A stretch of DNA of 64,000 nt from Holophagales bacterium (GTDB lineage: Bacteria > Acidobacteriota > Thermoanaerobaculia > Multivoradales > Multivoraceae): assembly GCA_009837885.1 (NCBI GenBank), contig VXSP01000045.1, forward strand, positions 325,526 to 389,525, given 5' to 3'. Made by a program: the position numbers and the translations under genes. The notes below the pieces were generated by a model, which saw nothing but the letters and a program-made list of their open reading frames with translations, searched no databases and had not been told where the DNA came from. Of the stretch, positions 15,688 through 57,207 are shown one piece after another. Numbering within the stretch: the first letter of the stretch is position 1; each line of letters opens with the position of its first letter.

Positions 15688-15711
15688 GTGGACGTTTCCT
15701 CCGCGGCCTCT

Positions 15712-16236: not shown

Positions 16237-16292
16237 GAGCTATGTAGGGGAGGGTTCAGCGGCTCCCGGCCTGCGCCGGGGCGAATGCGGGC

Positions 16293-16826: not shown

Positions 16827-16965
16827 TGTGCGGTTCTCCTTCCCCCGGAACAAGGGGATTGACGTTGGTTTCGGTTGGCTGGCGGAATCGCGAGCCGGGA
16901 GTGTAACTCAGAAACGGAGGCCTTCACGGGGGAAGCGGGTGCCGCCCGCGACGGCCTGGAGCTGC

Positions 16966-27508: not shown

Positions 27509-27665
27509 GAGGGGTGCTACGTGATTTTTTGGCGACTTACCGAGTGTACCTGTGGGGTTTTGTCCTCGTCGTCCGCGTCGTGATGGGTAACGTTGTCTTT
27601 GTGTTCGGCCTGGCGGAGGAGTAGGGTCCGGGCAGGTCGGCGCGAACCGGGCGGAGGTTTCGGAG

Positions 27666-33300: not shown

Positions 33301-33506
33301 TGCTCGACCGGCCGGGTGATCAGGCTCTCCATCTCCTCCGGCGCCACGCCTTCGTAGGTCGTCGTGATCGAGATCCGGGGCATGTCGACTTCGGGCATCA
33401 GGTCGACGGCGAGCTGGCGCACGGCGACCAGACCGATCACGACGACGCAAACGTAGAGCATGGTCACGCCCACCGGGCGGTTGGCGGAAAGGCGGGGGAG
33501 GTTCAT
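30342..33506 (-). CDS. RND efflux transporter permease (AcrB/HAE family)
   Basis: Start re-placed at ATG 33506 (MNLPRLSANRPVGVTMLY). 12-TM AcrB-type layout with two large periplasmic loops. The track ORF's upstream extension overlaps the MFP gene. Confidence 0.9.
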   Translation of the reverse strand: MNLPRLSANRPVGVTMLYVCVVVIGLVAVRQLAVDLMPEVDMPRISITTTYEGVAPEEMESLITRPVEQALSTVTGLDQLNSMSAEGMSSIQAQFDWGVDLNEVVNDIREQLDFVRGMLPEDASEPTLFKFNLSDMPVVFLGLSGTGDARQVRHMAEQTISRRLERLPGVASVDIQGGRVREIQVQLAADRMAALGITPSEVTNALSRENRNVSAGDMLETGREVLIRAIGEFERKVDVENTIVAIRDGRPILVRDVGRVDDGIREMTNELWINGAEGMRMFVMKQSGSNTVEVVDRLKREIDAINRDYAGRAEITILMDGAAFIRQAVNNVQLGAMFGAALAVLVLMFFLRDMRATLIVGAAIPISVLATIALMYFNGFTLNVISLAGIALGVGMLVDGSIVVLESIYRRLHEGERPTAAAVAGSNEVAMAIAAGTLTTVAVFLPVVFISGFAGIFFNQLAITVSFALLCALFVALTLIPAAAARWLREVPKSRQVTDECVAALGPVDMAYGRMIEWALGRPGRVMATAVVLLLGSFALVPIIGLELMPESDEGRLNMRVEMPVGAPLDETTGTMEEIEARVRGALRPDELDSLITTAGPESWWRPAQSNQGTMEILLTPLTERTRGQEEVLASIRHAIADVPAAQVQLYASSNNMMMRMMRGGQDARLVVEIRGHDLDQGNELAQRVIDAMAAVPGVVHPRLDRESGQLERTLRVDRARLAELGLNGSQVADAVEHYVLGRVATKFRDQGDEFDIRVQLQPEDRLRIEQLPQLPIVTPRGDIVPLGSVASINPGEGPLSINRENQERYMQVLAGIDGRRFSDAANDVEAALARIETPYGFTIDMGGELEEQRQVFVELLIGVLLAVFLVYTVMAVQFESLVQPLVIMTAVPFSLLGVLLTLAVTGTTLNMNSFLGLVVLVGIVVNNAIVLVDNVNRMRRDVGCTLHEALIRGSRRRLRPILMTTLTTALGLLPLTLGIGEGSELQAPLARVVVGGLLASTLITLIFVPSLYLLVERGRERRRAIRGRRKAARQAGMHLPQGAPAMQRSRVQA

Positions 33507-33514
33507 CGTCGGCC

Positions 33515-34807
33515 TCAGAGTCCGGCGGCGCCAGTGGGCGAGGGCTGTGCTTCTGATGGTTGGGGCTCGTTGCGGACGACCCGAACGGGCGCGCCGTGTC
33601 CCAACTGGTTGTGGCCCATCGTCAGGACGAGCTCGCCGGCTTCGACGGGACCGGCGATCGCGCTGTACTCCCCGGAGCGGCCCGCGACCGTGACCGCGCG
33701 CCACTGGGCGAGGCCGTCGACCGGCACCATGACTCCCGTGGAGCGCGCGCCGTCCATCGCCACCCGTTCGAGCAGGGCGGTACCCGGTACGATCAGTGCG
33801 TTTTCGAGATCCCGCAGGCTGACGGAGACGTCGGCGTACATGCCCGGCAGGAGCAGGTCGTCCGTTTCGGCCAACTCGCCCTCGACGAGCACGGTGCGGT
33901 CGTTGCGGCGCACCTCGCCGGCGACCCGGCGCACGATGCCGCCGAAAGTCCGGTCGCCCGTGGCTTCGGTGACCACGTCGAAGGCGGCGCCGGTCTGGAC
34001 CGCCGAAAGATCGCGTTCCGGAACCCGAAACTGGACCAGAAGCGGCGCCTCCTCGACCAGGCGCAGAATCGGCGTGCCCGGCTGGACCAGGGCGCCGCGG
34101 TCCAGGTAACGATCCGAGACGACGGCGTCGAACGGCGCCCGCACGCGGGTGTTCGCGAACTGCTCGGCGAGCAGCGCCTCGCGGGCCGCGGACTGCTGGA
34201 CCTGGGCCTCGCCGGCGGCCAGGTTCGCCTTCGTCGTCGCGTACTGGGAACTGACCTGCTGCTGCTCCTGCTCGGAGAGGAGACCCTGGTCGTAGAGCTC
34301 CATCGCCCGCTGGTAGTCGGCTTCGACGCCGACGAGCTCGGCGGCGGCGCGATCGCGGTTGGCCTCCGCGACGCCGAGTTGACCGCGCGCCTCCTGGAGC
34401 TGGTTCCTCACTTCGACGTCGGCGATCACCGCGATCACCGTGCCGGCCGCGACCCGCTGGCCGATTCGTGCCGGGACGTCGATCAGGAGCCCGGAGACCT
34501 GGGGTGAGATGTCGGAGACCTCCCCCACGAGTTCTCCCGAATAGGCGGTGCGCACGGAGAGGAATCCGCGCCACGCGGCGACGGCGCGCACGGGTACTGC
34601 CTGGGTCATCTGCGCGTCCGCCGCCTGGCCGCCTGCACGCGCCTGGGACCCGCGGCCGAAGGCGAACACGGCGGCCGCGACGAGCACGAGGGCCGCGACG
34701 GCAAGCCCCGCGATCTGCGGGCGGCTGATCCGGCGGCCGGGTTTCGGAGCGGCTCTCGGGGAGCGCGGCATTGCGCCGCCTCCATTGGGTTGCTGAGCTA
34801 TAGCCAT
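33515..34807 (-). CDS. RND efflux periplasmic adaptor (HlyD/MFP family)
   Basis: 430 aa with an N-terminal TM anchor, a coiled-coil hairpin (LQEARGQLGVAEAN...QVQQSAAREAL) and beta-barrel segments. It lies directly upstream of the RND pump. Confidence 0.85.
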   Translation of the reverse strand: MAIAQQPNGGGAMPRSPRAAPKPGRRISRPQIAGLAVAALVLVAAAVFAFGRGSQARAGGQAADAQMTQAVPVRAVAAWRGFLSVRTAYSGELVGEVSDISPQVSGLLIDVPARIGQRVAAGTVIAVIADVEVRNQLQEARGQLGVAEANRDRAAAELVGVEADYQRAMELYDQGLLSEQEQQQVSSQYATTKANLAAGEAQVQQSAAREALLAEQFANTRVRAPFDAVVSDRYLDRGALVQPGTPILRLVEEAPLLVQFRVPERDLSAVQTGAAFDVVTEATGDRTFGGIVRRVAGEVRRNDRTVLVEGELAETDDLLLPGMYADVSVSLRDLENALIVPGTALLERVAMDGARSTGVMVPVDGLAQWRAVTVAGRSGEYSAIAGPVEAGELVLTMGHNQLGHGAPVRVVRNEPQPSEAQPSPTGAAGL

Positions 34808-34850
34808 GAGATCGTCGTTTCTTTCTGGTCTGACGGTTCTTCCGCGTCGT

Positions 34851-37207: not shown

Positions 37208-40200
37208 TCAGGCGGTCGCCAACTGGCGCTCGGGGTGCATCTCGTCGACGTCGACGCCGACGATCTTCGAGACCCCGCGTTCCTCCATCGTGACCCCGTA
37301 GAGCGTGCTCGCGACCTGCATCGTCAGCTTGTTGTGGGTGATGACGAGGAACTGGGTCTCCGCCGACATCCGCTCCAGCATGTCGACGAAGCGCAGGATG
37401 TTCGCGTCGTCGAGCGGCGCGTCGACTTCGTCGAGGATGCAGAAGGGCGAGGGCTTGGTCTGGAAGAGGGCGAACAGCAGGGCGATCGCGGCCAGAGCCT
37501 TCTCGCCGCCTGAGAGCAGCATGATGTTCTGGGCCCGCTTTCCCGGCGGCCGGGCGGTGATCTCGATGCCGCAGTCAAGCGGATCCTCCTCGTCCATCAG
37601 GCGCATTTCCGCGTCTCCTCCGCGGAAAAGCTCCGTGAAGGTCCGCCCGAAGTTCTCGTTGACCTCGCTGAAGGTGGCGACGAAACGCTCGGAGGAGGTC
37701 CTGTCGATGTCGCGAATCGTGCGTTTCAGGCTCTCGACAGAGGACGCCACGTCGGCCCGCTGTCCGGCCAGGAAGGTGTGGCGCTCCTGCTGCTCGTCGT
37801 ACTCGTCGGCCGCCAGGACGTTGACCGGCCCCATCCGCTCCAGCAGGGTGCGCCGGCGTTCGAGCTCCTCGGTCATGGTCTCGAGGTCGGCGGCCTCGCC
37901 GTCCTGCGTTGCCGGCGCCTCCCGGGTGGCCAGCTCGCGCCGGAACTCCTCGCGGTACTCCCGTTCCAGGTGTTCGGCGTCCTGACGCAGGCCCGCCTGC
38001 CGCACGCGCAACTCCTCGATCCGGTCACGCAGTTCGTCGCGCCGGGTGCCGAGGTCGCGCATCCGGGCATCCAGTTCGCGTCCGCGGTCCCTCTCAGCCT
38101 CGAGAGCCTCCTGGGCGCCGGTCGCTTCGTCTCTGGCGCTCGTCCGCTCGGCCAGGGCGTCGTCGAGTTCCCGCCTCGCCCGGGTGGATGAGTCCTCGAG
38201 TTCGACAAGACGCCCGCGCAGCCGCTCCTGCTCGACCAGCCATTCCTCGTCGGCCTCGCGCAGACCCGCGATTCGTCCCTCGAGCCGCTCGGTTTCGTTC
38301 CGTTCGGTGGCGGAGCGCTCCTCGATCAACTCGAGTTGGCCCTGGCGGCCGGCGCCCGCGGTGACGTGCTCCTCCCGTTCTTCCCGAGCCCGCTCGACGG
38401 CGGCCGCCGCTTCCTGCACTGCCCGTTCCAGACTGCGGTGAACCGTCTCCCGGGCCTCGATGTCGGTCTGGATCCGGGCCTGCCGACTCTCCGTCTCGGC
38501 GATTCCGCGGATCAGTTCGTCGCGCTCGGTCTCGGCCGCCGCGCTCTCGCGGGCCTGCACGTCGCGTCGTTCGGTGATGTCCTGGAGCCGGGCCTTGGCG
38601 ACCGCGAGCTGTTCCCGTAGCCCGGCCGCGGCCTGCTCGATCCGTCGACCTTCCAGAGCGGCGTCGCGGACGCTCTCAGCGGCGGCATCGATGTCCCGAC
38701 CCAGTGCCGTGCAGCGCGCCTCGAGTTCGTCAGACCGTCGAACGAGGTCGTCGAGTTCGCGCTGGCGGCCCAGGGCGCCGGGCGCCGCGCCCTCGCCGCG
38801 GACGGTGACACGGCCGGCCTCGATCCAGAGCCGGTCGCGGCACAGGAAGGCGACACCCGGGTTGTCCGCCGCCAGGCGTTCCGCCGCTTCGGGGCTCTCC
38901 ACGAGACAGCCGGGCTGAAGCGAGCCCCGCAGATCCTCGGGGAGGCCCAGCGCGGTCCACACGTCGCCGACGATCTCCGGATCGTCGAGTTCCCCGAGTG
39001 CCGTGAGTTCCGACAGGGGCTGCGGCGGATCAGCCGGCCGGAGAAGTGTGACCTGGTGGTCGAAGCCGGCGAGAGCTCGGGCAATGGCGACCGCGTCTTC
39101 GTCGCCGGGGGCCAGGATCGCATTGCGCAGCGGACCGAGGAAGAGGTCCAGGCTGTCCTCCCAGCCCGCCGGGACGTTCACTTCGTCGCCGAGAAAGCGG
39201 GGCTCGGAGAGTTCCAGCTCGATCAGCGCGTCCCGGATTCCGGCCCGCAGTTCCTCGTCTCGCCGACCGAGCTCTCGGAGAACAGCCGCCCGCTTCTGGG
39301 CTTCGACCAGCTCCTCGCGGCGCGTTTCCAGTTCGGCCTGGGCGGTTTGCCGTCGGTCCCGGCTCGCTTCCAGGGCCACGGCCGCCCGCCGGGCGGCCTG
39401 GGTTTCGGTCGTCAGGGCGAGTTCCAGCGTTTCCACCTTGGCGCCCACGTCTCTGACGTCGACGTCGATCGAGCGGAGGGCTTCCTGGCTGCGTTCGAGG
39501 GTCTTTTCGGCGCGGTCGCGGCGGTCGACCGCCTTTTCGCTGACGATGCGCTCCGCGACCAGACTGCTTCGCAGTTCGTCGATGCCGACCCGCGATGCCG
39601 CCTGTTCCTCGAGCAGATCCCGGTGTCGTCTGCGCGCATCCTCGATCGCGGTATCGGCCTCGTCGATCCGCCGGCGGTCCTCGTGGACCTTCGCCAGCGC
39701 CTCTTCGCGCTCCGAGAGGAACATCTGGCGGCGTCCGGCGAGAACGGCGAGCGCCTCTTCGGCCGTTGCCAGTTCGCGGCGCCGCGTCTCCCCATCGCGG
39801 GCGCCTGCCTCGAGCCTCTCGGCGATCTCCGCTCGGGTGGCGCCGGCTCCCTTGATCAGTTCGCTCCGCCCCTCGATCGTCGCCAGCAGGGTGGCCTGAC
39901 GTTCGTGCGAGCGAACGGCCTCCTCTGTGCGCGCGTCGATGACGTGACGGGATTCGGCGAGTGCCGCGTTGCCGCGGGCGATCTCGGCCAGGAGTTCCGC
40001 CTCGCGGTCGGCCTCCCGTGCGAGAGCCGACCCGAGTTCCTCGAGCTCGCCACGGAGCTTCGCCCAGCGCGCCAGGAGCACGGCGTCGAGCAGTTCACGA
40101 TAGGCGTCCCTGCGCTCACGGTGGCGCCGGGCGGCGTTCGCCTGACGCTTGAGGGAGCGAAGACGGCGCTCGACCTCGGAGATGATGTCGTCGAGCCGGA

Positions 40201-40768
40201 GCAGATCGGCGGTCGCGTCCTCGAGCTTCAGGCTGGCCAGCCGCTTGCGGTTCTTGTAGCGGGTGATCCCGGCCGCTTCCTCGATCAGCTTGCGGCGTTC
40301 CTGGGGCTTGCCGGAGAGGATCATCCCGATCCGCCCCTGCTCGATCACGGAGTAGGCGCGAATGCCCAGACCCGTGTCCATCAGGATGTCGCGGATGTCC
40401 TTGAGCCGGGCCACCCGGTCATTCAACCGGTACTGGCCCTCGCCGCCCCGGAAGATTCGCCGCCCGATCGTGATGCGGCCATCCTCGGCGTTTTCGACGC
40501 TGCCGTCGGTGAGGAAGGTGAGGCTGACCTCGGCCATCCCCAGGGGCTTGCGTTGGCCGCTCCCGTTGAATATGACTTCCTCCATGGAGCTGCCGCGGAG
40601 CGACTTCGGGCTCTGTTCGCCGAGCACCCAGGTGATGGCCTCCGCCAGGTTGCTCTTGCCGCAGCCGTTGGGTCCGACGATCGCCGTGATGCCGCGGGCG
40701 AACCGGCTCGTTACCGGGTCGACGAAGGTCTTGAAGCCGTTGACTTCAAGGCTCTCGAGTTTGAGCAT
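37208..40768 (-). CDS. smc: Chromosome segregation protein SMC
   Basis: Start re-placed at ATG 40768 (MLKLESLEVNGFKTF...IVGPNGCGKSN Walker A). Long coiled coils, a hinge, a C-terminal signature LSGGEK and Walker B FCILDEVDAPLD. Confidence 0.95.
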   Translation of the reverse strand: MLKLESLEVNGFKTFVDPVTSRFARGITAIVGPNGCGKSNLAEAITWVLGEQSPKSLRGSSMEEVIFNGSGQRKPLGMAEVSLTFLTDGSVENAEDGRITIGRRIFRGGEGQYRLNDRVARLKDIRDILMDTGLGIRAYSVIEQGRIGMILSGKPQERRKLIEEAAGITRYKNRKRLASLKLEDATADLLRLDDIISEVERRLRSLKRQANAARRHRERRDAYRELLDAVLLARWAKLRGELEELGSALAREADREAELLAEIARGNAALAESRHVIDARTEEAVRSHERQATLLATIEGRSELIKGAGATRAEIAERLEAGARDGETRRRELATAEEALAVLAGRRQMFLSEREEALAKVHEDRRRIDEADTAIEDARRRHRDLLEEQAASRVGIDELRSSLVAERIVSEKAVDRRDRAEKTLERSQEALRSIDVDVRDVGAKVETLELALTTETQAARRAAVALEASRDRRQTAQAELETRREELVEAQKRAAVLRELGRRDEELRAGIRDALIELELSEPRFLGDEVNVPAGWEDSLDLFLGPLRNAILAPGDEDAVAIARALAGFDHQVTLLRPADPPQPLSELTALGELDDPEIVGDVWTALGLPEDLRGSLQPGCLVESPEAAERLAADNPGVAFLCRDRLWIEAGRVTVRGEGAAPGALGRQRELDDLVRRSDELEARCTALGRDIDAAAESVRDAALEGRRIEQAAAGLREQLAVAKARLQDITERRDVQARESAAAETERDELIRGIAETESRQARIQTDIEARETVHRSLERAVQEAAAAVERAREEREEHVTAGAGRQGQLELIEERSATERNETERLEGRIAGLREADEEWLVEQERLRGRLVELEDSSTRARRELDDALAERTSARDEATGAQEALEAERDRGRELDARMRDLGTRRDELRDRIEELRVRQAGLRQDAEHLEREYREEFRRELATREAPATQDGEAADLETMTEELERRRTLLERMGPVNVLAADEYDEQQERHTFLAGQRADVASSVESLKRTIRDIDRTSSERFVATFSEVNENFGRTFTELFRGGDAEMRLMDEEDPLDCGIEITARPPGKRAQNIMLLSGGEKALAAIALLFALFQTKPSPFCILDEVDAPLDDANILRFVDMLERMSAETQFLVITHNKLTMQVASTLYGVTMEERGVSKIVGVDVDEMHPERQLATA

Positions 40769-40912
40769 CGTGCGTGTGGTGGCCAATCGGGCTGGTTGAG
40801 CTTCGGGGAACATAACAGGGTTCATGCATAAGTCACAAGTGGTTGTGCCGGCGACGGACCGCGTCCACAACATGTGGCGTCGCGAGCGCGCCGCTGATAC
40901 GCTGCCGCGGCC

Positions 40913-41466
40913 GTGAGTGCGCTGACTGTCAAGCGGATGCTGTTCGACGCGCCGCAGATGGCGCGGATGATGCGCCGGATGGCGTTGGAGGTGGTCGAGC
41001 GGGCGGGGGGCACCGATTCGCTGATGCTGGTCGGCGTGCGCACGCGCGGCGTGCCCCTGGCCGACTTCGTCGCCGCCGAGATCAAGCGCACCGAAGGCGT
41101 CGCCGTGCCAGTGGGCGTGCTCGACATCACGCTCTACCGGGACGATCTCTCGACCATCGCGCCGCAGCCCGTGGTCAAGGAGAGCGTGATGCCGGTGCCG
41201 ATCGACGACCGAATCGTCGTGCTCTGCGACGACGTCCTCTACAGCGGCCGCACGATCCGGGCGGCGATGGACGCTCTGATCATGGACTACGGCCGGCCGC
41301 GGGCGATCCGCCTGGCGGTGCTGATCGACCGTGGCCACCGGGAACTGCCGATCCACGCCGACTGCGTCGGTGAACACGTGCAGACGACCGACACCGAGGT
41401 GATCAAGGTCTCTTACGCCGCCACCGACGGCGGCAAGGAGATGGTCGAGCTCCTGGAACGCGAGGG

Positions 41467-48021: not shown

Positions 48022-48816
48022 CTACTCCGGAAGGGTGAACGTGAGATCGAGCGTCGCGGCGAGCCCGTCGAGCAGCGTCACGCCGGACCGCATCGTGCCG
48101 AGACGTTCGTGCCACGCCTCGATCGTGTAGGTGCCGGCCGGGAGCCCGGGAATCTCGAACGAGCCGTCCGGCCCGGAGACGGCGAAGTAGGGGTGGCTGA
48201 AGACCCCGACATAGCTCGACATCCACGGGTGGACGTCGCACTTGATCCGGAACGCCGGCTCCTCGTCGGTGAACGAGAACGTGGCCTGCTTGATGGCCGC
48301 CGGCATGGCCCGGTTGAAGGGGCGGTTGACCTCGGACAGCGAGTGGACGTTGTGGAGCAACTCGTCCGAGTTCAGCACCTTGAGCTCCTGGCCCACCATG
48401 ATGCCTGCGACGCGGGGCGTGTAGCGGCAGCCCTGCTGGTCGATCACGGGCGGTTCCGCCGGCGGGTAGGGCCCCTGTGGAACGTTGTCGGCGACGTAGA
48501 CGAGGACGTTGGCCAGGCCGGCCTGATCGTCGACCGCGAGGATCTCCGGATAGACCGGCTCCGTGTGCTTGGCGGCGCAGGCGGGATCGGCATGCATGTT
48601 GAGCGGCCGGAGTTCCGGCACCTCGCCGTCGAAGCGAACGACGCCGGCGATCGAACTGTTGCCGAGGGGTTCGGTGGGTGTGGCTTCGGGGGCTGAGGGA
48701 GTGTCGCCGCCGGAGTGCTCCGGGGCATCGCCGGCGCAGCCGGCCAGGAGGAAGGCGAAGGGAAGAAGGGCCGTGGAGAGGGCCAGCGGAAGCGTAGTTC
48801 TCGATGCGCAGATCAT
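48022..48816 (-). CDS. Cupredoxin (amicyanin-like type-1 Cu site) lipoprotein with C-terminal carboxypeptidase-regulatory-like domain
   Basis: Lipobox LLAGC. Candidate Cu ligands: LLHNVHS (His) and KCDVHPWM (C-x2-H-x2-M, as in amicyanin). C-terminal GSFEIPGLPAGTYTIEAWHE. Paralog of 52397..53113. Confidence 0.65.
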   Translation of the reverse strand: MICASRTTLPLALSTALLPFAFLLAGCAGDAPEHSGGDTPSAPEATPTEPLGNSSIAGVVRFDGEVPELRPLNMHADPACAAKHTEPVYPEILAVDDQAGLANVLVYVADNVPQGPYPPAEPPVIDQQGCRYTPRVAGIMVGQELKVLNSDELLHNVHSLSEVNRPFNRAMPAAIKQATFSFTDEEPAFRIKCDVHPWMSSYVGVFSHPYFAVSGPDGSFEIPGLPAGTYTIEAWHERLGTMRSGVTLLDGLAATLDLTFTLPE

Positions 48817-48971
48817 GCGCCTATTCTAATGGGCCGCAGGACGGTTGCACCGGGGTTCTTCTCGCCGTACGGCCCGTTTCCTTGACCGCGATAGGGGCGG
48901 GTGTTAGCTTCCGCGCGATTCGTGGCCCGGCCGGCCCTTGAGGGCACAGCCGCCCTATCTCCAGGCCCTCG

Positions 48972-50432
48972 ATGGCACAGAGTCAGGACAACACTCAGGA
49001 ACCCGTCGCCGGGCGTGCGCCGCTGATCGTCGGCGGTTACGACTTCCGTTCCCTGACGGAAGCGGTCGCGGTGCCGGTCGAGCGCAAGACGCCGATCGGC
49101 TGGTGGTTCTTCTTCCTGCCGTCGCTGGCGATGCTGGGCCTGTTCGGCGTTTCGATCGGCTGGCTGTTCTGGGAGGGCACCGGCATCTGGGGCCTGAACA
49201 ACCCGGTCAACTGGGGCTTCGCGATCGTCAACTTCGTCTTCTGGGTCGGCATCGGCCATGCCGGCACGTTGATCTCCGCGATCCTCTTCCTGTTTCGGCA
49301 GAAGTGGCGCACGTCGATCAACCGCGCGGCGGAGGCGATGACGATCTTCGCGGTCATGTGCGCCCTGGTCTTCCCGGGAATCCACGTCGGCCGCGTGTGG
49401 GTCGCCTACTGGATGTTCCCGCTGCCGAATCAGATGGACATGTGGCCGAACTTCCGCAGCCCGCTGATCTGGGACGTGTTTGCGGTGTCGATCTACGGCA
49501 CGGTGTCCCTGATGTTCTGGTACGTGGGCCTGATCCCGGATCTCGCGACGATCCGCGACCGCGCCAAGACGCGGATCAAGCAGATCGCCTACGGCATCTT
49601 CGCTCTCGGCTGGCGCGGTTCGCACCGGAACTGGCTCCACTACGAGCGGGCCTACCTGATGCTGGCCGGTCTGGCGACGCCGCTGGTTCTCTCCGTCCAC
49701 TCGGTCGTGTCGATGGACTTCGCCACCGCCCAGTTGCCGGGCTGGCACACGACGATCTTCCCGCCGTACTTCGTCGCCGGGGCGATCTTCTCAGGCTTCG
49801 CCATGGTCATGACCCTGATGCTGATCTGCCGGGTCCTGTTCAAGATGGAGGACATCATCACGATGCGCCACCTCGAGAACATGGCCAAGATCATGCTGCT
49901 GACGGGGTGCATGGTCGGTTACGCCTACGGCATCGAGATGTTCATCGCCTGGTACAGCGGCAACCCGTACGAGCAGTTCGCCTTCGCCAACCGGGCCCTC
50001 GGGCCCTACGCCTGGGCCTACTGGATCATGGTGAGCTGCAACGTGCTCACGCCGCAGTTGTTCTGGTTCAAGAAGATGCGCAACCACATCGGCTGGCTGT
50101 TCATCTCCTCGATCCTGATCAACATCGGCATGTGGTTCGAGCGTTTCGTCATCGTCACCTCGTCGCTGCACCGCGACTTCCTGCCCGCGAACTGGGACTA
50201 CTACCAGGCGACCTTCTGGGACTTCGCTTCGCTGATCGGCAGCTTCGGCCTGTTCTTCACGATGTTCTGCCTGTTCGCCCGGTTCCTGCCGCTGGTGGCG
50301 ACGGCGGAGGTCAAGACCGTGCTGCCGGAGGCCGACCCGCACCAGGGCGAGGAACTGGTGCGCGTGGTGCCAGCCGGCTCCGGAGTGGAACCCGCGCCGC
50401 AGGCGGCGCCGGCCGGCGGGGGAGGGTCCTGA
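48972..50432 (+). CDS. actC: Alternative complex III subunit ActC (NrfD/PsrC-family quinol-interacting membrane subunit)
   Basis: 486 aa and polytopic. [31 protein letters not shown] and RFVIV are typical of the NrfD family. It is followed by ActD and ActF homologs. Confidence 0.8.
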
Positions 50433-50433
50433 C

Positions 50434-51042
50434 ATGGGCCTGATGACCCTGGACGTGCCGGAAGCGTCGGCGGGTTACAGCCACTACGGTGTGCTGGCCC
50501 GCTTCGAAACCGCGAAGGCGCTCTACCGGGCCTGTGAGGCGGTCCGGGACGCCGGCTACTCGAAGTGGGACGCGCTGACGCCGTTTCCGGTTCATGGTCT
50601 CGAGAAGGCGATGGGGCTGAAGCCGTCCAGGCTGCCGTTCCTCGTGCTGGCCACGGGACTTTCCGGCGCCGGGCTCGGCTTCGCCCTGCAGAGCTGGGTC
50701 CACATCAAGGGCTACCCGCTGATCATCAGCGGCAAGCCGCTGTTCACCTGGCCCGCCTTCGTGCCGGTCACCTTCGAGCTCGGAGTGCTCGGCGCTGCGC
50801 TGGGGGCGGTGCTCGGCATGTTCGCCTTCAACAAGTTGCCCACCTACCACCATCCGCTCTTCCGGTCGAAGAACTTCGCGCGCGTGACGGACGACGGTCT
50901 GTTCATCGCCATCGAGGCCTGGGATCCGAAGTACGACGACCAGGACACCGCGGAGTTCCTGAGCAGGCTCGGCGCGGTCGAGGTGGAGCACGTGCCGATC
51001 GACGATCCCGCGGACGACGGTGACGGGGGAGGCGCCGCCTGA
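50434..51042 (+). CDS. actD: Alternative complex III subunit ActD (DUF3341)
   Basis: 202 aa. GVLARFE....L..A....RDAGY.KWDA.TPFPVHGL..AMG, then two TM helices, is the DUF3341 pattern. Confidence 0.8.
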   Translation: MGLMTLDVPEASAGYSHYGVLARFETAKALYRACEAVRDAGYSKWDALTPFPVHGLEKAMGLKPSRLPFLVLATGLSGAGLGFALQSWVHIKGYPLIISGKPLFTWPAFVPVTFELGVLGAALGAVLGMFAFNKLPTYHHPLFRSKNFARVTDDGLFIAIEAWDPKYDDQDTAEFLSRLGAVEVEHVPIDDPADDGDGGGAA

Positions 51043-52277
51043 TGGCCCACGGACCGCGCATCGTTCATCTCGATCAATTGGTCATCCGGCCGGGCAGCGG
51101 CTGGGCGCGCCTGCCTTTGATCGCGGGCGCGGTCGGCGTCGTCTTCACGGTCGTGTCGATCGTGCTGGCGATGGGGTCAAAAGAGAGCACCAAGCAGTTC
51201 TTCCACTCCTGGCTCGTCGCCGTCGTCTTCTTCCTCTGCATCGGTCTCGGCTGCCTGTTCTTCGTGCTGATTCACCACGCGACGAAGGCCGGCTGGGGCG
51301 TCGTGGTGCGCCGTCTGGCCGAGAACCTGGCCTGCACGGTGCCTGTGCTGGCCGTCCTGTTCATTCCGGTCGTGGCCCTGGGCATGTACGACCTGTTCCA
51401 CTGGACCCACGCCGACGCCGTGGCGCACGACCGGTTGCTGCAGGTCAAGGAACCGTGGCTCAACGAGACCGGCTTCTGGATTCGGACCGTCATCTACTTC
51501 GTGATCTGGAGTGGGCTGGCCCTCTACTTCCGGAACGCGTCGCGGCGCCAGGATGACAGCGGAGACGAGGCCCTTTCCCACCGGATGGCGCGATTCAGCC
51601 CCGTCGCGGTCGCCATGTTTGCCGTGACGCTGACGTTCGCCGGTTTCGACTGGCTGATGTCGCTGGAGCCGCACTGGTACTCGACGATGTTCGGCGTCTA
51701 CTTCTTCGCCGGTACGGTCGTCTCGGCGTTCGCGGCGCTTACGGTCCTCACCCTGGCCTTCGAACGGTCGGGCCACTTCCGGGGCGTGATCACCGGCGAG
51801 CACTTCCACGATCTCGGCAAGCTGCTGTTCGCCTTCACGGTCTTCTGGGCCTACATCGCCTTCAGCCAGTTCTTCCTCATCTGGTACGCGAACATCCCGG
51901 AGGAGACGAACTGGTTCCTGAGCCGGCTGCACGGCACGGCCGACAATCCGGCGAACTGGCGCCCGGCGACCCTGCTTCTGGCCATCGGCCACTTCGCCGT
52001 CCCGTTCTTCTTCCTCATGCCCCGGACGATCAAGCGCAACCGCACCCTGCTGCTGATCGGCGCCCTCTGGATGCTGGCCATGCACCTCTGGGACGTGTTC
52101 TGGCTGGTCATGCCGAACCTGCACCGGGAGATGACGTTCTCCCTGCTCGACCTGACCTCGCTGCTCGGCGTGGGCGGCGTGTTCCTGGCAACCGCGGGCT
52201 GGCTGCTGGGCCGCGGCTCGCTGGTGCCGTCCCGCGATCCGCGGCTGGTCGAGTCGCTGGCCTTCGAGAACATCTGA
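51042..52277 (+). CDS. actF: Alternative complex III subunit ActF-like quinone-binding membrane protein
   Basis: 411 aa and polytopic. FFLIWYANIPEETNWF and HATKAGWGVVVRR motifs. The start shares one nucleotide with the actD stop (TGATG). Confidence 0.75.
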   Translation: MAHGPRIVHLDQLVIRPGSGWARLPLIAGAVGVVFTVVSIVLAMGSKESTKQFFHSWLVAVVFFLCIGLGCLFFVLIHHATKAGWGVVVRRLAENLACTVPVLAVLFIPVVALGMYDLFHWTHADAVAHDRLLQVKEPWLNETGFWIRTVIYFVIWSGLALYFRNASRRQDDSGDEALSHRMARFSPVAVAMFAVTLTFAGFDWLMSLEPHWYSTMFGVYFFAGTVVSAFAALTVLTLAFERSGHFRGVITGEHFHDLGKLLFAFTVFWAYIAFSQFFLIWYANIPEETNWFLSRLHGTADNPANWRPATLLLAIGHFAVPFFFLMPRTIKRNRTLLLIGALWMLAMHLWDVFWLVMPNLHREMTFSLLDLTSLLGVGGVFLATAGWLLGRGSLVPSRDPRLVESLAFENI

Positions 52278-52396
52278 GACGTTCAGGGGCCCTCCCAGTC
52301 CGTCAGCCGTTCGCCTTGTTCAGTCCGCCGGTCCTTGCTACGCTGCGCACCGTCTCAGGACCTCTTGCAACACCTCTCCCGTCAAGGAGCATCGAC

Positions 52397-53113
52397 ATGA
52401 TTCCGAAGCAGACGATTCGCGTCTGTGCCGTTCTTCTCGCCTTCGCCCTGGCTTCCTCCTCGGTTGCGCTCGGCGGCACGATTGTCGGCAAAGTCACGTA
52501 CGAAGGCCGGACGCCCCCGCAACGCCCGATGAGGATGGACGCGGACCCCAAGTGCGCCGAGAAGCACAGTGGCACGGTCCTCGACCAGACCTTCATGATC
52601 GGGGATGGCGGCGCCTTCGCCAACGTCTTCCTGGTGATTACCGAGGGCCTGGACGGGAAGTCGTTCGACACGCCTTCGCAGCCGGTGGTCATGGACCAGA
52701 ACGGCTGCATCTACACGCCACGCGTCATGGGCATCCAGGTCGGGCAGCAGTTCAAGGTGAAGAACTCGGACGGCCTGCTGCACAACGTCCACTCCCTGTC
52801 CAAGGACAACCCCCCGTTCAACCGGGCGATGCCGGCCAGCGTGACGGAGGCCGACTACAGCTTCGACAAGACGGAGCGCTTCCGCATCAAGTGCGACGTC
52901 CACCCCTGGATGACGTCCTGGGTGACGGTCGTCGATCATCCGTTCTACGCGGTTTCGGGCGCCGACGGCAGTTTCCGCATCGAGAATGTTCCGGCCGGCA
53001 CCTACACGATCGAGGCCCGGCATGAGTTCGAGAGGTTCAGGATCTACTCGGAGACCGTCGAGGTCGGCGACAGTGGCGAAGCGACGGTGAACTTCGTCTT
53101 CAAGCCGGAGTAG
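52397..53113 (+). CDS. Cupredoxin (amicyanin-like type-1 Cu site) with carboxypeptidase-regulatory-like domain, secreted
   Basis: Start placed at ATG 52397, after AAGGAG (MIPKQTIRVCAVLLAFALASSSVALG). LLHNVHS and KCDVHPWM motifs. C-terminal GSFRIENVPAGTYTIEARHE. Confidence 0.65.
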   Translation: MIPKQTIRVCAVLLAFALASSSVALGGTIVGKVTYEGRTPPQRPMRMDADPKCAEKHSGTVLDQTFMIGDGGAFANVFLVITEGLDGKSFDTPSQPVVMDQNGCIYTPRVMGIQVGQQFKVKNSDGLLHNVHSLSKDNPPFNRAMPASVTEADYSFDKTERFRIKCDVHPWMTSWVTVVDHPFYAVSGADGSFRIENVPAGTYTIEARHEFERFRIYSETVEVGDSGEATVNFVFKPE

Positions 53114-53154
53114 ACGAGGCAACCCCAGAAAGTAGCTAGAAAGGAGCGGCGTCC

Positions 53155-54912
53155 ATGGCGGAGCCCGTTCACGCTTCACCTGCACACGACGAGCATCACC
53201 ACGAGCAGAGCTTCTGGCGGAAGTACATCTTCTCGACCGATCACAAGGTGATCGGCGTCCAGTACTCGGTCACGGGTCTGGCGTTTCTCCTCTTCGGGTT
53301 CGTCCTGATGATGGTGATGCGCTGGAACCTCGCCTACCCGGGCGAGCCGATTCCCTTCATCGGCTCGCTCCTCGGCGAGAACCGGGCGCCCGGCGGCATC
53401 ATGCTGCCGGACTTCTACAACGAGCTCGGCGCCATGCACGGCACGATCATGGTGTTCCTGGGGGTCGTGCCGCTGGCGGTCGGCGGCTTCGGCAACTTCG
53501 TCATGCCGCTGCAGCTCGGCGCCCCGGACATGGCCTTCCCGCGGATCAACATGATCAGCTACTGGTGCCTGTTCCTGGGCGGCGTGACGATGTTCGCCAG
53601 CTTCTTCCTGCCGAACGGCGCCGCGGGCAACGGCTGGACCTCCTACTCGCCGCTGGCCGACATCGCGCTGAACGGCCAGACCGCCTGGCTGATCGGGATG
53701 ATCTTCCTGATCACGTCGTCCCTGCTGGGCGCGGTCAACTTCATCACCACGGCGATCCAGCTCCGGGCTCCGGGCATGACCTGGATGCGACTGCCCTTCT
53801 TCTGCTGGGCGCAGATCGTGACCGCCTTCCTCCTGCTGCTGGCCTTCCCGCCGCTCGAGGCCGCGGGCGTGCTGCAGTTGATGGACCGGGTCGCGAACAC
53901 CAGTTTCTTCATTCCGGAGGGCCTGGTGGTCGGTGGCGAAGTGGTCGACCGGAGCGGAGGCGGCAGCCCGCTGCTCTGGCAGCACCTGTTCTGGTTCCTG
54001 GCCCACCCGGAGGTCTACGTGCTCATCCTGCCGGCGATGGGGATCGTCGCCGAGGTGATCGCGAACAACTCCCGCAAGCCGCTCTGGGGTTACCGCTCGA
54101 TGGTCTACTCCCTGATCTTCCTCGGCTTCATGAGCTTCATCGTCTGGGCGCACCACATGTTCATCACCGGCATGGGCTCGGTGATGTCGACCTTCTTCCA
54201 GACGACGACGATGATCATCTCGATCCCGTCGGTCATCATCCTGAGCGCGCTCTTCATCTCGCTGTGGGGCGGTTCCATCCGCTACAACACGCCGATGCTG
54301 TTCGCGCTCGGCTTCCTGCCGATGTTCGGCATAGGAGGGCTGACCGGGCTGCCGCTCGGTCTCTCGGCGGCGGACATCCCGCTCCACGACACCTACTACG
54401 TGATCGGGCACTTCCACTACGTGGTGGCGCCCGGAACCCTGTTCGCGCTGTTCGCCGGCGTCTACTACTGGTTCCCCAAGGTGACGGGGCGCAAGATGAA
54501 CGAGTTCCTGGGCAAGCTCCACTTCTGGCCCTCGCTCGTCTTCATGAACGGGGTTTTCTTCCCGATGATGATCCAGGGCCTGAACGGCGTATCGCGCCGG
54601 CTCGCCGACGGCGGCATCACTTACGACTTCGCGGGCGAGGTCGCCGGGCTGAACCGGATGATGTCGGTTTCGGCCTGGTGCCTGGCGGTGGCGCAGATTC
54701 CGTTCATCATCAACTTCTTCATGAGCATCCGGAACGGCGAGAAGGCCGGACGCAACCCCTGGAACTCGACCACCGTCGAGTGGCTGGCGCCGTCGCCGGC
54801 TCCGCACGGCAACTTCGATCAGCCGATCGAGGTTGTGCGCGGGCCGTACGAGTACAGCGTCCCGGGTAGCGACAAGGACTACGTCCCACAGGCCGAACCG
54901 GCCTCAACCTGA
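53155..54912 (+). CDS. ctaD: Cytochrome c oxidase subunit I (A1-type haem-copper oxidase)
   Basis: 585 aa. GAPDMAFPRIN, WFLAHPEVYVLILP (HPEVY with the Glu and the cross-link Tyr), WAHHMF and GHFHYV. Confidence 0.95.
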   Translation: MAEPVHASPAHDEHHHEQSFWRKYIFSTDHKVIGVQYSVTGLAFLLFGFVLMMVMRWNLAYPGEPIPFIGSLLGENRAPGGIMLPDFYNELGAMHGTIMVFLGVVPLAVGGFGNFVMPLQLGAPDMAFPRINMISYWCLFLGGVTMFASFFLPNGAAGNGWTSYSPLADIALNGQTAWLIGMIFLITSSLLGAVNFITTAIQLRAPGMTWMRLPFFCWAQIVTAFLLLLAFPPLEAAGVLQLMDRVANTSFFIPEGLVVGGEVVDRSGGGSPLLWQHLFWFLAHPEVYVLILPAMGIVAEVIANNSRKPLWGYRSMVYSLIFLGFMSFIVWAHHMFITGMGSVMSTFFQTTTMIISIPSVIILSALFISLWGGSIRYNTPMLFALGFLPMFGIGGLTGLPLGLSAADIPLHDTYYVIGHFHYVVAPGTLFALFAGVYYWFPKVTGRKMNEFLGKLHFWPSLVFMNGVFFPMMIQGLNGVSRRLADGGITYDFAGEVAGLNRMMSVSAWCLAVAQIPFIINFFMSIRNGEKAGRNPWNSTTVEWLAPSPAPHGNFDQPIEVVRGPYEYSVPGSDKDYVPQAEPAST

Positions 54913-54932
54913 CCGTTCGAGGACCTCAAGAG

Positions 54933-55532
54933 ATGGAAATCCCCTACACGGTAGAGGCCCACCCCGAAACCGGCCTCAACAACGGGAAGATCGGGATCTG
55001 GCTGTTCCTGACCTCGGAGGTCATGCTGTTCGGGGCGTTGTTCGCCACGTTCATCATGCTGCGCCTGGGATCGGACGGCAACTGGGCCGCGATGCAGGCG
55101 GAAGCGGAGCTCAACATTCCGCTGGCGACGCTCAACACGGCCGTGCTGATCGCCTCCAGTCTGACGATGGTCATGGCCTGGGCGTCGCTGATGCGCGGGC
55201 AACTGGGCCGGTTCAAGCTGTTCGGCTGGCTGACCGTCGCCTGCGGCGGCGTCTTCTTGGTCATCAAGTACTTCGAGTACACGGCGAAGTTCGAGCACCA
55301 CCACTACCCGGAGTCGAGCACCTTCCTCGCCATCTACTTCGCGATGACGGGCCTCCACGCCCTGCACGTGATCGGCGGCATGGCCTGGAACGCCTACTTC
55401 ACCGGGCCGGGGTCGAAGCTTTTCCACACGAACCGGCAGTGGCTGACCGACCGGGTCGAGCACTCCGGTCTGTTCTGGCACTTCGTCGACCTGGTCTGGA
55501 TCTTCCTCTTCCCCGTCTTCTACCTGCTGTAG
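54933..55532 (+). CDS. ctaE: Cytochrome c oxidase subunit III (short form)
   Basis: 199 aa. WLFLTSEVMLFGALF, YFAMTGLHALHVIGG and LFWHFVDLVWIFLFP. Confidence 0.9.
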   Translation: MEIPYTVEAHPETGLNNGKIGIWLFLTSEVMLFGALFATFIMLRLGSDGNWAAMQAEAELNIPLATLNTAVLIASSLTMVMAWASLMRGQLGRFKLFGWLTVACGGVFLVIKYFEYTAKFEHHHYPESSTFLAIYFAMTGLHALHVIGGMAWNAYFTGPGSKLFHTNRQWLTDRVEHSGLFWHFVDLVWIFLFPVFYLL

Positions 55533-55584
55533 CGGACATCTGCCGCCCTGAATCCCTGGTCTACCCTGGAGCGAGTCGCATTCC

Positions 55585-55914
55585 ATGAGTGAACACGTCG
55601 ATATCGACAAGCAGGTCCGCGTCTACTTCCTGGTTTTCGGCGCCCTGATGGTGGGTACGCTCGTCACGGTTCTTGCGGCGGAACTCGATGTTTCGGTGCC
55701 GGTGGCCCTCACCATCGGCCTGTTCATCGCCACCGCCAAGGCGTCGCTGGTCGCCTGCTTCTTCATGCACCTGATCGACGAGAAGAAGATCATCTACTGG
55801 ACGCTGGCCCTGACCGTCGCGTTCTTCATCGCCCTGATGGCGTTGCCGCTCCTGACCTCGGTAGCGGACCAGGTAGGGGAGTTCGCCGAAGTCGAGGCGC
55901 ACGAGCCGCACTGA
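55585..55914 (+). CDS. Cytochrome c oxidase subunit IV family protein
   Basis: 109 aa with three TM segments and the FFMHL motif typical of prokaryotic CoxIV/QoxD-like subunits. Confidence 0.7.
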   Translation: MSEHVDIDKQVRVYFLVFGALMVGTLVTVLAAELDVSVPVALTIGLFIATAKASLVACFFMHLIDEKKIIYWTLALTVAFFIALMALPLLTSVADQVGEFAEVEAHEPH

Positions 55915-55933
55915 CGATCCCGCTGAACGCGTC

Positions 55934-56407
55934 ATGAACCTGAAGGTCATTCACATCGTCTTCGTCGGCAGCGCCATTCTCCTGGCGCTGTTCTTCGGCG
56001 GCTGGTGTCTGGCGCAGGGGAGCGCGTTCGCGGTGGGCGCCGTTCTTTCCTTCGCGGTCGCGGCTGCGCTCGTCTGGTACGGCATCTGGTTCTGGCGCAA
56101 GATCACGACGCCCGAAGAGGAGTGGGCTCGCCGGCGCAAGCTGTTCCGCACGATTCCCGTTGCCGTGGTCGTCTGGCTCTTCGCCTCCGAGCCGGCGGCC
56201 TGGGCCTGCTCGGTCTGCTACGGGGCCGCTGAAGGGTCGATGATCGACGCGGCCCGGGCCGGGGTGTGGTTCCTGCTGGCGGCCGTGTTCGTGATGCAGG
56301 GGGCCTTCGTTCTCTTCTTTCTCTATCTCCGGCGCCGTGCCCGGCGTCTGCGAACCGACCCGGTGCCGCCCTGGTGGAGCACCGTTGAGGAGCCTGTCAA
56401 GTCATGA
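55934..56407 (+). CDS. 4-TM membrane protein with CSVCYG motif, embedded in the cox operon
   Basis: 157 aa with four hydrophobic helices. A CxxC lies at the predicted start of TM3. ATGA overlap with the following coxII start. Confidence 0.6.
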   Translation: MNLKVIHIVFVGSAILLALFFGGWCLAQGSAFAVGAVLSFAVAAALVWYGIWFWRKITTPEEEWARRRKLFRTIPVAVVVWLFASEPAAWACSVCYGAAEGSMIDAARAGVWFLLAAVFVMQGAFVLFFLYLRRRARRLRTDPVPPWWSTVEEPVKS

Positions 56408-57207
56408 TGGATGCCATGTTCCCGGCCGCGGCGTCGGAGCACGCCGGCCGGATCGACAACATGATCGACGCGGTGCACTACCTGATGCTCGCGCTCTTCA
56501 TCGTCTGGGGCGTGTTCTTCGTGTACGTGCTGATGCGCTTCCGCGCCAGCCGCAACCCGAAGGCGGACTACGTCGGCGTCAAGAGCAAGATGAGCACTTA
56601 TGGTGAAGTCGCCGTGGCGATCGCGGAAGGGATTCTCCTGCTCGGCTTCTCGATTCCCATGTGGGCGGAACGGGTGGACGAAGTGCCGCCGGAGTCCGAG
56701 GCGACGGTCGTGCGGGTCGTGGCGCAGCAGTTCGCGTGGAACGTCTGGTATCCGGGGGCCGACGGCGAGTTCGGCGCGCAGGACCTGTCACTGATAGACG
56801 AGGCGACCAATCCGATCGGCCTCGACCGCGACAGCGAGGCCGGCGCCGACGACATCTGGACGGTGAACCAGTTGCACCTCCCGGTCGACAAGGCGGCGAT
56901 CATCCACCTGACGTCCAAGGACGTGATCCACAGCTTCAACCTGCCGAACATGCGGATCAAGCAGGACACGATCCCGGGCATTTCGATTCCGGTCTGGTTC
57001 GTTCCCACCAAGACCACCGCCCAGATCCGCGAAGAGACCGGAAACCCGGACTACGTCTACGAGATCGCCTGCGCCCAACTCTGCGGCAACAGCCACTACT
57101 CGATGCGCGGCTTCCTGACCGTGCACACCGAGGAGGAGTTCCAGGCCTGGCTCGACGAGGAGGCGTCCTACCTCACCGGCAGCGACGACGACTTCTTCGA
57201 CTTCTAG
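56404..57207 (+). CDS. ctaC: Cytochrome c oxidase subunit II (CuA domain, no fused cytochrome c)
   Basis: 267 aa with two N-terminal TM helices. CuA ligands DVIHSF ... CAQLCGNSHYSM. Confidence 0.9.
   Translation: MMDAMFPAAASEHAGRIDNMIDAVHYLMLALFIVWGVFFVYVLMRFRASRNPKADYVGVKSKMSTYGEVAVAIAEGILLLGFSIPMWAERVDEVPPESEATVVRVVAQQFAWNVWYPGADGEFGAQDLSLIDEATNPIGLDRDSEAGADDIWTVNQLHLPVDKAAIIHLTSKDVIHSFNLPNMRIKQDTIPGISIPVWFVPTKTTAQIREETGNPDYVYEIACAQLCGNSHYSMRGFLTVHTEEEFQAWLDEEASYLTGSDDDFFDF

Follow-up and report, generated by a model that had tools for sequence, protein, structure and literature searches.

How would the membrane arm of a respiratory complex work when the genes of its redox subunits are missing from its operon? 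The question is raised by a stretch of 64,000 nucleotides from a Holophagales bacterium (contig VXSP01000045.1), the whole of which is here called the window. At positions 48022–57207 it carries a cluster that encodes three membrane subunits of alternative complex III (ACIII), ActC, ActD and ActF, together with two cupredoxins and an oxygen reductase. The original prediction, which was made from the letters of this DNA, had described the region as an ACIII reduced to these subunits, bracketed by paralogous cupredoxins and joined to an aa3-type oxidase operon; this observation is confirmed, and its interpretation is partly supported. Among the quinol-oxidising respiratory complexes ACIII is the least understood, and the way in which its proton channels are driven by the oxidation of quinol has yet to be explained. 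The present cluster is a widely conserved operon in which the ActCDF arm is genetically parted from ActABE and is linked to a copper carrier and to an oxidase without the K-channel lysine. We give an even chance to the reading that it is a supercomplex operon, in which the ACIII membrane arm would dock ActAB encoded elsewhere and the cupredoxin would replace ActE and the cytochrome c domain.

The ACIII membrane arm and its conservation

The gene actC (48972–50432, forward strand) encodes an NrfD-type protein of 486 aa with ten transmembrane (TM) helices, a paralogue of ActC that we call ActC2 (Pfam NrfD, E 7.8e-26). It is 66% identical to ActC of Rhodothermus marinus (6f0k_C, E 7e-202), and in this alignment His138, Ser163, Asp168 and Asp252 of the window protein correspond to the quinol-site residues His139, Ser164, Asp169 and Asp253 of R. 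marinus. The coupling subunit with two TM helices is encoded by actD (50434–51042, forward strand, 202 aa; PF11821, E 1.5e-63), which aligned to all four solved ActD chains, including 6lod_D, 6f0k_D and 8k9e_D, with E values of ~1e-46 to 1e-52, and the periplasmic loop that contacts ActB is conserved in these alignments. A second NrfD-like subunit of 411 aa, without the quinol site, is encoded by actF (51042–52277, forward strand; 6f0k_F, E 9.4e-88), and counterparts of Tyr284, Glu300, Glu301 and Arg308 of the proton path are conserved in it. Moreover, the alignments showed that equivalents of the coupling residues Ser245 of ActC, Glu122 of ActD and Tyr284 of ActF are all kept in the window proteins; the lists of quinol-site, coupling and proton-path residues were taken from published work (PMC5928083, PMC8076601). 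The original prediction had left room for the 486- and 411-aa proteins to come from a different NrfD-type complex. Complexes of the Psr, Nrf, Dsr and Qrc types were considered and rejected, since the matches of ActD and ActF point specifically to ACIII, and the profile searches bear out the initial family assignments. Judged by these alignments, ActC, ActD and ActF of the window are genuine ACIII subunits.

The locus does not encode a complete ACIII, for neither the operon nor the rest of the 64-kb window contains ActA, ActB or ActE. Reading of the ten genes agreed with the expectation that actC is the first gene of its unit, with a divergent gene upstream, and is followed only by actD and actF of the act genes. 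The region lies in a genome with a G+C content of 68% and its genes are tightly packed, with gaps of −4 to 52 bp and the exception of 119 bp between actF and the downstream cupredoxin gene. No actE is present between actD and actF, where the stop codon of actD overlaps the start codon of actF and neither a CxxCH motif nor a tblastn match was found. None of the ten cluster proteins carries CxxCH in its translation, and a six-frame scan of the 64 kb showed that the iron–sulfur (Fe-S) cysteine cluster C-x2-C-x2-C-x3-C is absent and that CxxCH occurs in only three open reading frames (ORFs), with one motif each, at 10–37 kb from the cluster. Translations and scan thus agree with the prediction that no CxxCH or Fe-S protein is encoded between 48.0 and 57.2 kb. 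ActE itself is dispensable in Flavobacterium johnsoniae, and some act clusters do without it (PMC8552683).

ActC2 forms a tight clade, with 71–85% identity across phyla, and is more conserved than canonical ActC. The canonical ActC of R. marinus lies just outside this clade (66–69% identity), and ActC from acidobacterial and Binatia actABCDEF operons is 56–58% identical to ActC2. A recent tandem duplication of the canonical superoperon was rejected as its origin, because ActC2 has only 56–60% identity to the canonical ActC of the same lineages and is nearer to that of R. marinus. When alignment columns of 136 cluster-type ActC (ActC2) were compared with those of 6 canonical ActC, no canonical-invariant periplasmic column had a changed consensus in the 136 sequences, and conservation of at least 95% is retained in 28 of 37 such columns. 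ActC2 has only three columns of its own, Trp64, Glu68 and Gly136, which are located at or near the periplasmic quinol pocket, with Gly136 between the Pro and the His of the quinol site. The conservation of these periplasmic columns of ActC2 and of the ActB loop of ActD would be expected if an ActB-like partner were still seated on the arm, and it favours such a partner.

Is this arrangement particular to the window? The genomic context was mapped by tblastn and gene-family clustering over 79 fetched GTDB loci. The order actC-D-F-cupredoxin-coxI-III-IV-X-II was found in 33 of them and in every close ActC relative checked; hence the synteny of actCDF, cupredoxin and cox is a conserved unit and not an assembly accident. 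These 33 loci, in which actC and actD are sometimes fused, belong to Thermoanaerobaculia, Vicinamibacteria, other Acidobacteriota, one Verrucomicrobiia, one Binatia and one 'delta'. In 14 of the 79 loci, from Omnitrophota, Marinimicrobia, Latescibacterota, Planctomycetales and Gemmatimonas, the genes upstream of the cupredoxin encode a Rieske protein, a split cytochrome b and an octahaem cytochrome c of ~1000 aa, together a complete Rieske/cytochrome b complex. Neither set is present in 20 loci of mixed lineages, and 12 others, also mixed, were too short to judge. The slot before the cupredoxin thus typically holds a quinol-oxidising complex III analogue, which fits the cupredoxin as a relay from complex III to CuA, and only the ACIII version of this upstream complex is without its redox subunits. 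In most loci the cupredoxin gene is directly upstream of coxI-III-IV-(X)-II; the order coxII-I-III-IV is found in Latescibacterota and Gemmatimonas.

Two further observations concern the upstream slot. The Rieske variant comprises genes for a HEAT-repeat protein, Rieske protein, cytochrome b, subunit IV, octahaem cytochrome c and two unknown families, f34 and f29 (loci L016, L029, L030, L034, L061, L062, L066, L070, L071, L078, L080, L082 and L084). In an acidobacterial locus (L033, 7287–10621) a divergent fused ActC-ActD with ~49% identity is directly before cupredoxin-cox, and this is an even more reduced variant, because there is no room for actF.

Cupredoxins, oxidase and subunit X

The two cupredoxin genes of the window flank actCDF in inverted orientation. 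On the reverse strand, cupU (48022–48816) encodes a lipoprotein of 264 aa with an LAGC lipobox, a ~30-residue linker rich in Pro, Thr and Glu, an amicyanin-like type-1 Cu site of the form H..C-x2-H-x2-M (HNVH...CDVHPWM) and a C-terminal beta-sandwich that matches Pfam CarboxypepD_reg; the match to the NCBIfam amicyanin model is weak. The sequence between cupU and actC is a divergent intergenic region of 155 bp (48817–48971), presumably the promoter region of both units; a promoter and terminator scan gave nothing above chance, using the sigma-70 consensus, which is uninformative for this phylum. On the forward strand, cupD (52397–53113) is directly upstream of coxI and encodes a cupredoxin of 238 aa with a Sec signal. 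Its start was placed at ATG 52397 and not at TTG 52316, which would give 265 aa, on the basis of an AAGGAG 7 nt upstream, of homologues that begin at MIPKQ and of independent gene calls that concur. Thus the predicted pair of ~265-aa paralogs, a lipoprotein and a Sec-secreted protein with Cu site and CarboxypepD_reg domain, stands, except that the downstream copy is shorter.

The two proteins are 47% identical and share all invariant columns of the family. The AlphaFold2 model of cupD had a mean predicted local distance difference test (pLDDT) of 90.7, and its central domain was matched by Foldseek to amicyanin, plastocyanin, pseudoazurin and CuA domains with probability 1.0, as was to be expected if these proteins were cupredoxins with a Cu site. 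His129, Cys166, His169 and Met172 are invariant in 27 diverse homologues and are present in both window copies. From the model, Foldseek and the ligand alignment, cupD is confidently predicted to be a type-1 copper protein. The same 27-sequence alignment has invariants outside the type-1 site, namely Cys53-x2-Lys56-His57, Cys104, His181-Pro182 and His209-Glu210 (cupD numbering), the first of which has the spacing of CxxCH with Lys replacing the second Cys. These extra residues could form a disulfide plus a second metal site or docking site.

The cupredoxin family had 1984 matches in the protein collection and is present in at least 593 GTDB species. Among the matches listed, the closest loci are 96–99% identical and come from sponge and environmental metagenome-assembled genomes whose labels read Acidobacteriota, Thermoanaerobaculia or 'Holophagales'; loci of 'Candidatus Multivoraceae/Multivorans' form the next tier. 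Organisms that carry the cluster are abundant in soils, sediments, wastewater and sponges. The inverted extra copy, in the orientation of cupU, was seen only in loci like those of the window's own family (Ca. Multivoraceae), and other lineages have a single copy; hence the bracketing of actCDF by paralogous cupredoxins holds for the window and Multivoraceae and is not conserved elsewhere. The same cupredoxin of ~240 aa, with the same invariants, precedes coxI together with actCDF, with the Rieske/cytochrome b complex or with neither, and no alignment column separates actCDF-linked, Rieske-linked and unlinked cupredoxins. The suggestion that it is a dedicated partner of ActCDF is not supported, as it is equally found with the Rieske/cytochrome b/octahaem complex or alone and has no actCDF-specific residues. 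By its contexts and its sequence the cupredoxin belongs to the oxidase and not to ActCDF. A haem donor to the cupredoxin is expected here by analogy, because the donor in the Rieske variant must be a c-type haem.

Some other contexts and genes touch the cupredoxin as well. In locus L047 (9938–14094) the cupredoxin gene adjoins ctaA-ctaB-sco1-DUF420 and no cox genes are present, and on the JGI contig with P0307 a MopE-like copper-binding protein and a MauG/cytochrome c peroxidase are encoded upstream of a type-2 cluster; these contexts may point to a connection with the supply of copper and the biogenesis of the oxidase. On the reverse strand of the window, 11085–14324 encodes a pyrroloquinoline quinone (PQQ) quinohaemoprotein dehydrogenase with a C-terminal cytochrome c domain, and it is accompanied by ORFs at 15214–16239 and 16296–16907 (both reverse), the set including a cytochrome c'-like protein and two DUF6644 membrane proteins. 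Because such periplasmic dehydrogenases feed small cytochromes or cupredoxins, this set is a possible alternative donor to the cupredoxins.

The oxidase genes follow cupD on the forward strand: coxI (53155–54912, 585 aa), which encodes subunit I of an A-type haem-copper oxidase (PF00115, E 2.7e-134), coxIII (54933–55532, 199 aa; PF00510, E 9e-20), coxIV for a prokaryotic subunit IV (55585–55914, 109 aa; PF03626, and TIGR02229 above cutoff), X (55934–56407, 157 aa) and coxII (56404–57207, 267 aa; PF00116, TIGR02866). Pfam, NCBIfam and the translations agree with the predicted unusual order I-III-IV-X-II and with a subunit II that has CuA and no cytochrome c. Its CuA ligands are H...CAQLCGNSHYSM, i.e. 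H...C-x3-C-x3-H-x2-M, and CxxCH is absent from it. Alignment to 1ar1_A and 7jro_a showed that CoxI keeps the haem and CuB histidines and HPEVY, with the D-channel Glu and the cross-link Tyr. The column of the K-channel lysine (K354 of Paracoccus denitrificans, 1ar1_A) is occupied by Ile, and the score of 583 against the NCBIfam CtaD model is below its cutoff of 670. Because the K-channel lysine is missing, the window oxidase, as read from its sequence, lies outside the textbook A-type. The label 'aa3' is a prediction; ctaA and ctaB are absent from the window cluster, and in Omnitrophota and related loci they come after the corresponding homologous operon.

The loss of this lysine is general for the cluster among the fetched loci. 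Across the motif, 68 of the 69 cluster-type CoxI that were recovered could be aligned (one hit was short) and all 68 are without the lysine, whereas it is kept in 11 of 15 other CoxI, including every one that adjoins actABCDEF. The helix VIII motif of cluster-type CoxI reads IISIPSV(V/I)IL(T/S)AL or a close variant, compared with ..IPSA(V/I)KVFNW in the canonical neighbour CoxI and ..IP(T/S)G/A(V/I)KVF(S/N)W as the canonical form. The D-channel Glu and every metal ligand are retained in this clade, and cupredoxin-linked CoxI looks like an unrecognised A-like oxidase subfamily spread over many phyla. Protein X, encoded between coxIV and coxII, is a membrane protein with four TM helices that matched nothing significantly in Pfam or NCBIfam. 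Its conserved features are A-C-x-V-C-(Y/F)-G on the periplasmic side and a cytoplasmic PPWWSTVEEP tail, and its family (f6) is present in 41 fetched loci; its role is probably that of an additional subunit of the oxidase or of a factor in CuA assembly. Across the fetched loci, cupredoxin, lysine-less oxidase and X form a core unit. Downstream of coxII, many Acidobacteriota loci have a recurrent opposite-strand set that is absent from the window and encodes a radical SAM/SPASM protein with PCP_red, a small PCP_red protein, a CbiA/ParA ATPase, an acetyltransferase and a Usp+PCP_red protein (f11, f26, f12, f32 and f24; e.g. L004 15080–20723, L085 18733–21452 and L087 18478–21394).

Possible sources of ActAB and the proposed role of the cluster

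The supercomplex operon can be described in three layers. The first is a distinct clade of A-type oxygen reductases with a CuA-only subunit II and a CoxI without the K-channel lysine. In the second, a tethered (cupU) or secreted (cupD) cupredoxin would give electrons to CuA and would do the job that ActE and the fused cytochrome c domain do in canonical ACIII-caa3. In the third, ActC-ActD-ActF, co-expressed with the oxidase, would oxidise quinol at the ActC site and translocate protons. ActCDF would not be self-sufficient and would dock the iron–sulfur and pentahaem module of ActB and ActA, encoded outside the operon either in a separate actAB(E) unit or in a canonical actABCDEF operon of the same genome from which it is borrowed. 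Electrons would pass from quinol to the [3Fe-4S] cluster of ActB, then to the haems of ActA, the cupredoxin, CuA, haem a and finally a3/CuB. The sequences show the gene content, the families of the proteins, the conserved catalytic and coupling residues, the fold and ligands of the cupredoxin and the conserved synteny; that ActAB is the partner, that electrons flow in this direction and that a physical supercomplex forms is what we infer. Reduction of a blue copper protein by ACIII is established for auracyanin in Roseiflexus (PMC7439408, PMC8552683), and so are ACIII-oxidase superoperons and supercomplexes (PMC5928083, PMC8407424).

Where would ActAB be encoded? In a Binatia locus (L036), actA with five CxxCH motifs, actB and actE lie divergently at ~1 kb from sco1-actC-actD-actF-cup-cox, and there is no second actC; the ActE is 37% identical to canonical ActE (E 1e-38). 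Read from their sequences, the two units together make up one complete ACIII split into its two structural modules. On the minus strand of L036 (1–5549), the place of actC after actA-actB-actE is taken by a gene for a membrane protein like subunit I of cytochrome bd (PF01654, E 1e-20); this could simply be a neighbouring cyd-like gene, or its product could be an unusual membrane partner of ActAB. A divergent actA-actB also adjoins the cluster in L004, L024 and L083, where the loci end within actB. Altogether, 8 of the 33 loci (L004, L024, L036, L037, L083, L026, L028 and L055) have canonical ACIII or caa3 genes no more than 6.5 kb from the cluster, which is far above chance for genomes of 4–8 Mb. 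A simple operon split, which the original prediction had named as the finding that would overturn it, was seen in one relative, L036.

Several observations weigh against an ActAB supplied from elsewhere. In the window, tblastn with ActA, ActB and ActE gave no match at E <= 1e-3. None of the three genes is present within ~6.5 kb in 28 of the 33 GTDB loci, nor within 8.7–10 kb upstream of actC in five further ActC-anchored clusters; these five include the contigs of P0337 and P0307, whose ActC are nearest to those of the loci with divergent actAB. Moreover, all 20 independently sampled actB loci that were long enough have their own actC after actB, with actD-E-F where the locus extends, and thus ActAB-only operons look rare; this control set came from a metagenome scan with the L004 ActB fragment, in which all loci recovered were ordinary actABCDEF loci with identities of up to 52%. 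The divergent ActBs of L004, L024 and L036 have 39–51% mutual identity, compared with at least 70% for their partner ActCs; a dedicated ActB clade partnering ActC2 was considered and rejected, because these ActBs do not cluster tightly. A full actA-actB-actC' adjoins the cluster in L037 (actC' 58% identity), and a caa3-type cox operon, the usual tail of the canonical superoperon, is just upstream in L026, L028 and L055. In these four loci the ActCDF of the cluster would be a second membrane arm and not simply the missing half. In addition, the invariant residues specific to ActC2, including Gly136, could mark a changed electron acceptor.

If no ActAB takes part, ActCDF alone would oxidise quinol as a quinol:cupredoxin oxidoreductase, with the copper of the cupredoxin or CuA sitting over the ActC quinol site, along the first of the two lines that the original prediction had suggested. 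We regard this as rather unlikely, and the path from quinol to O2 by copper and the oxidase haems alone that it entails, with proton pumping by ActC and ActF and the first NrfD-type subunit without an iron–sulfur partner, as equally doubtful. It would account for an operon that begins with actC across phyla, never with actAB upstream on the same strand and never with actE between actD and actF, for ActAB-only operons in 0 of the 20 sampled actB loci, and for the strong conservation of ActC2 with its clade-specific residues near the quinol pocket. It would also give a reason for a spare arm in L037, and probably L026, L028 and L055, which own a complete canonical ACIII or caa3. In the window family there are two cupredoxins, and in one of these a long linker joins the protein to a lipid anchor. 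Nevertheless, the cupredoxin is unlikely to be specialised to cap ActC, because the same protein, with no context-specific residue, is found in actCDF-linked, Rieske-linked and unlinked clusters. The ActB-facing loops of ActC and ActD are kept, and L036 has actA-actB-actE beside the cluster and no other membrane arm. In a review of NrfD-like subunits every described complex has an iron–sulfur partner subunit, and its table contains no NrfD-type subunit without one (PMC8076601). A single one-electron copper centre would, moreover, strand a semiquinone without an electron wire.

Two other explanations leave quinol oxidation or the cupredoxin relay aside. That ActCDF is a scaffold or an ion-conducting module of the oxidase, without quinol oxidation, is highly improbable in our view: the genes are inside an oxidase operon, with sco1 directly upstream in L036, and the lost K-channel lysine invites speculation on an alternative proton supply, but the four quinol-site residues, the chain Asp169-Glu122(D)-Ser245-Tyr284(F) and the channel residues are strictly kept, and a scaffold role is unlikely because catalytic and coupling residues are so conserved. 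Moreover, the same oxidase clade occurs and works without actCDF in many genomes, hence ActCDF is not a required part of it, and without redox input ion translocation would have no energy source. The cupredoxin could also be a copper-delivery or assembly factor for CuA/CuB instead of a relay, the rest being as in the supercomplex operon. We consider this improbable, too, despite the L047 context, several loci that have a cupredoxin and no adjacent oxidase, the MopE-like protein near one cluster and the invariant Cys, Lys and His outside the type-1 site. The full His-Cys-His-Met set, the amicyanin loop spacing HNVH ... C-x2-H-P-x-M and the confident fold are the signature of electron transfer, and CoxII has no other built-in electron entry domain. 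A chaperone role is thus disfavoured by the complete type-1 ligand set; the known CuA chaperones PCuAC and Sco have different ligand sets.

What would follow for ACIII depends on the source of ActAB. If ActAB is supplied in trans, as in the supercomplex operon, the two structural modules of ACIII would be exchangeable and cells would keep alternative arms for different oxidases. If ActAB is truly absent, quinol would be oxidised by a chemistry not seen before in quinol oxidases, and the arrangement would be common among Acidobacteriota and would extend to Verrucomicrobiota and Binatia. In the searchable part of the literature no description of an actCDF-only cluster, of this CarboxypepD_reg cupredoxin or of this lysine-less A-family clade was found, and an earlier description elsewhere is possible. 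The cupredoxin family, the lysine-less oxidase subfamily and subunit X are thus seemingly undescribed.

The genes that flank the cluster, one for a HAD hydrolase and one for a GH109-like oxidoreductase, are unrelated to it. Large unrelated genes upstream encode an SMC-like ATPase of 1389 aa (37208–41377, reverse strand), an AcrB-type resistance-nodulation-division transporter with a long N-terminal extension (30342–34850, reverse strand; 1502 aa as an ORF) and a TonB-dependent receptor (27591–30275, forward strand).

Comparison with known systems

The nearest characterised relative of the window ActC, ActD and ActF is the ACIII-caa3 of R. marinus (6F0K), with which they have the quinol, coupling and channel residues in common, and there too the act genes are fused to an A-type oxidase operon (actABCDEF followed by caa3). 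By comparison, the window has no actA, actB, actE or actG/H, either in the operon or elsewhere, and a cupredoxin gene is inserted between act and cox. Its CoxII lacks the cytochrome c domain, the cox genes are in the order I-III-IV-X-II and CoxI lacks the K-channel Lys. The ACIII-A2 caa3 superoperon described by Trojan et al. in 2021 (PMC8407424) belongs to the same phylum and likewise unites a complex III analogue and complex IV in one unit, with a presumed supercomplex. We found this canonical superoperon in L089, L090, L091, L096, L100 and L122. Its genes run actA-B-C-D-E-F-(sco)-coxII(cyt c)-I-III-IV, and the K-channel Lys that the window CoxI has lost is present in its CoxI. The window cluster is a separate paralogous type, which in some genomes coexists with the canonical superoperon or with its caa3 genes.

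Blue copper proteins as acceptors of ACIII are known from Chloroflexus and Roseiflexus, where electrons pass to membrane-tethered auracyanin as is proposed here for the window. Auracyanin A is a lipoprotein and auracyanin B is TM-anchored, which echoes the lipoprotein and Sec pair of the window. However, the operons of these organisms encode ActA, ActB and ActE, auracyanin is encoded outside the oxidase operon, and it belongs to a different cupredoxin subfamily without the CarboxypepD_reg domain of cupU and cupD. The best structural match of cupD is amicyanin (Foldseek probability 1.0, TM-score to target ~0.7), although sequence identity is ~20% and the NCBIfam amicyanin score is 17 against a cutoff of 110. 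The amicyanin motif is HNVH ... C-T-P-H-P-F-M, compared with HNVH ... C-D-V-H-P-W-M in the window cupredoxin. Unlike amicyanin, the window cupredoxin is extended by an N-terminal segment in which two Cys are invariant and by a C-terminal CarboxypepD_reg domain, and its genomic partner is an oxidase instead of MauAB.

Relay of electrons by a cupredoxin from a quinol-oxidising module, or from a periplasmic donor, to CuA, with the genes kept together, is known from Sulfolobus SoxM, which combines Rieske/cytochrome b, sulfocyanin and a CuA oxidase, and from the rusticyanin/AcoP-aa3 system of Acidithiobacillus (PMC5982212). These archaeal and acidophile systems are based on Rieske/cytochrome b and not on ACIII subunits. 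The Rieske/cytochrome b/octahaem-cupredoxin-cox variant of Omnitrophota, Marinimicrobia, Latescibacterota and others is the closer analogue; in the window cluster the ACIII membrane arm occupies the slot before the cupredoxin.

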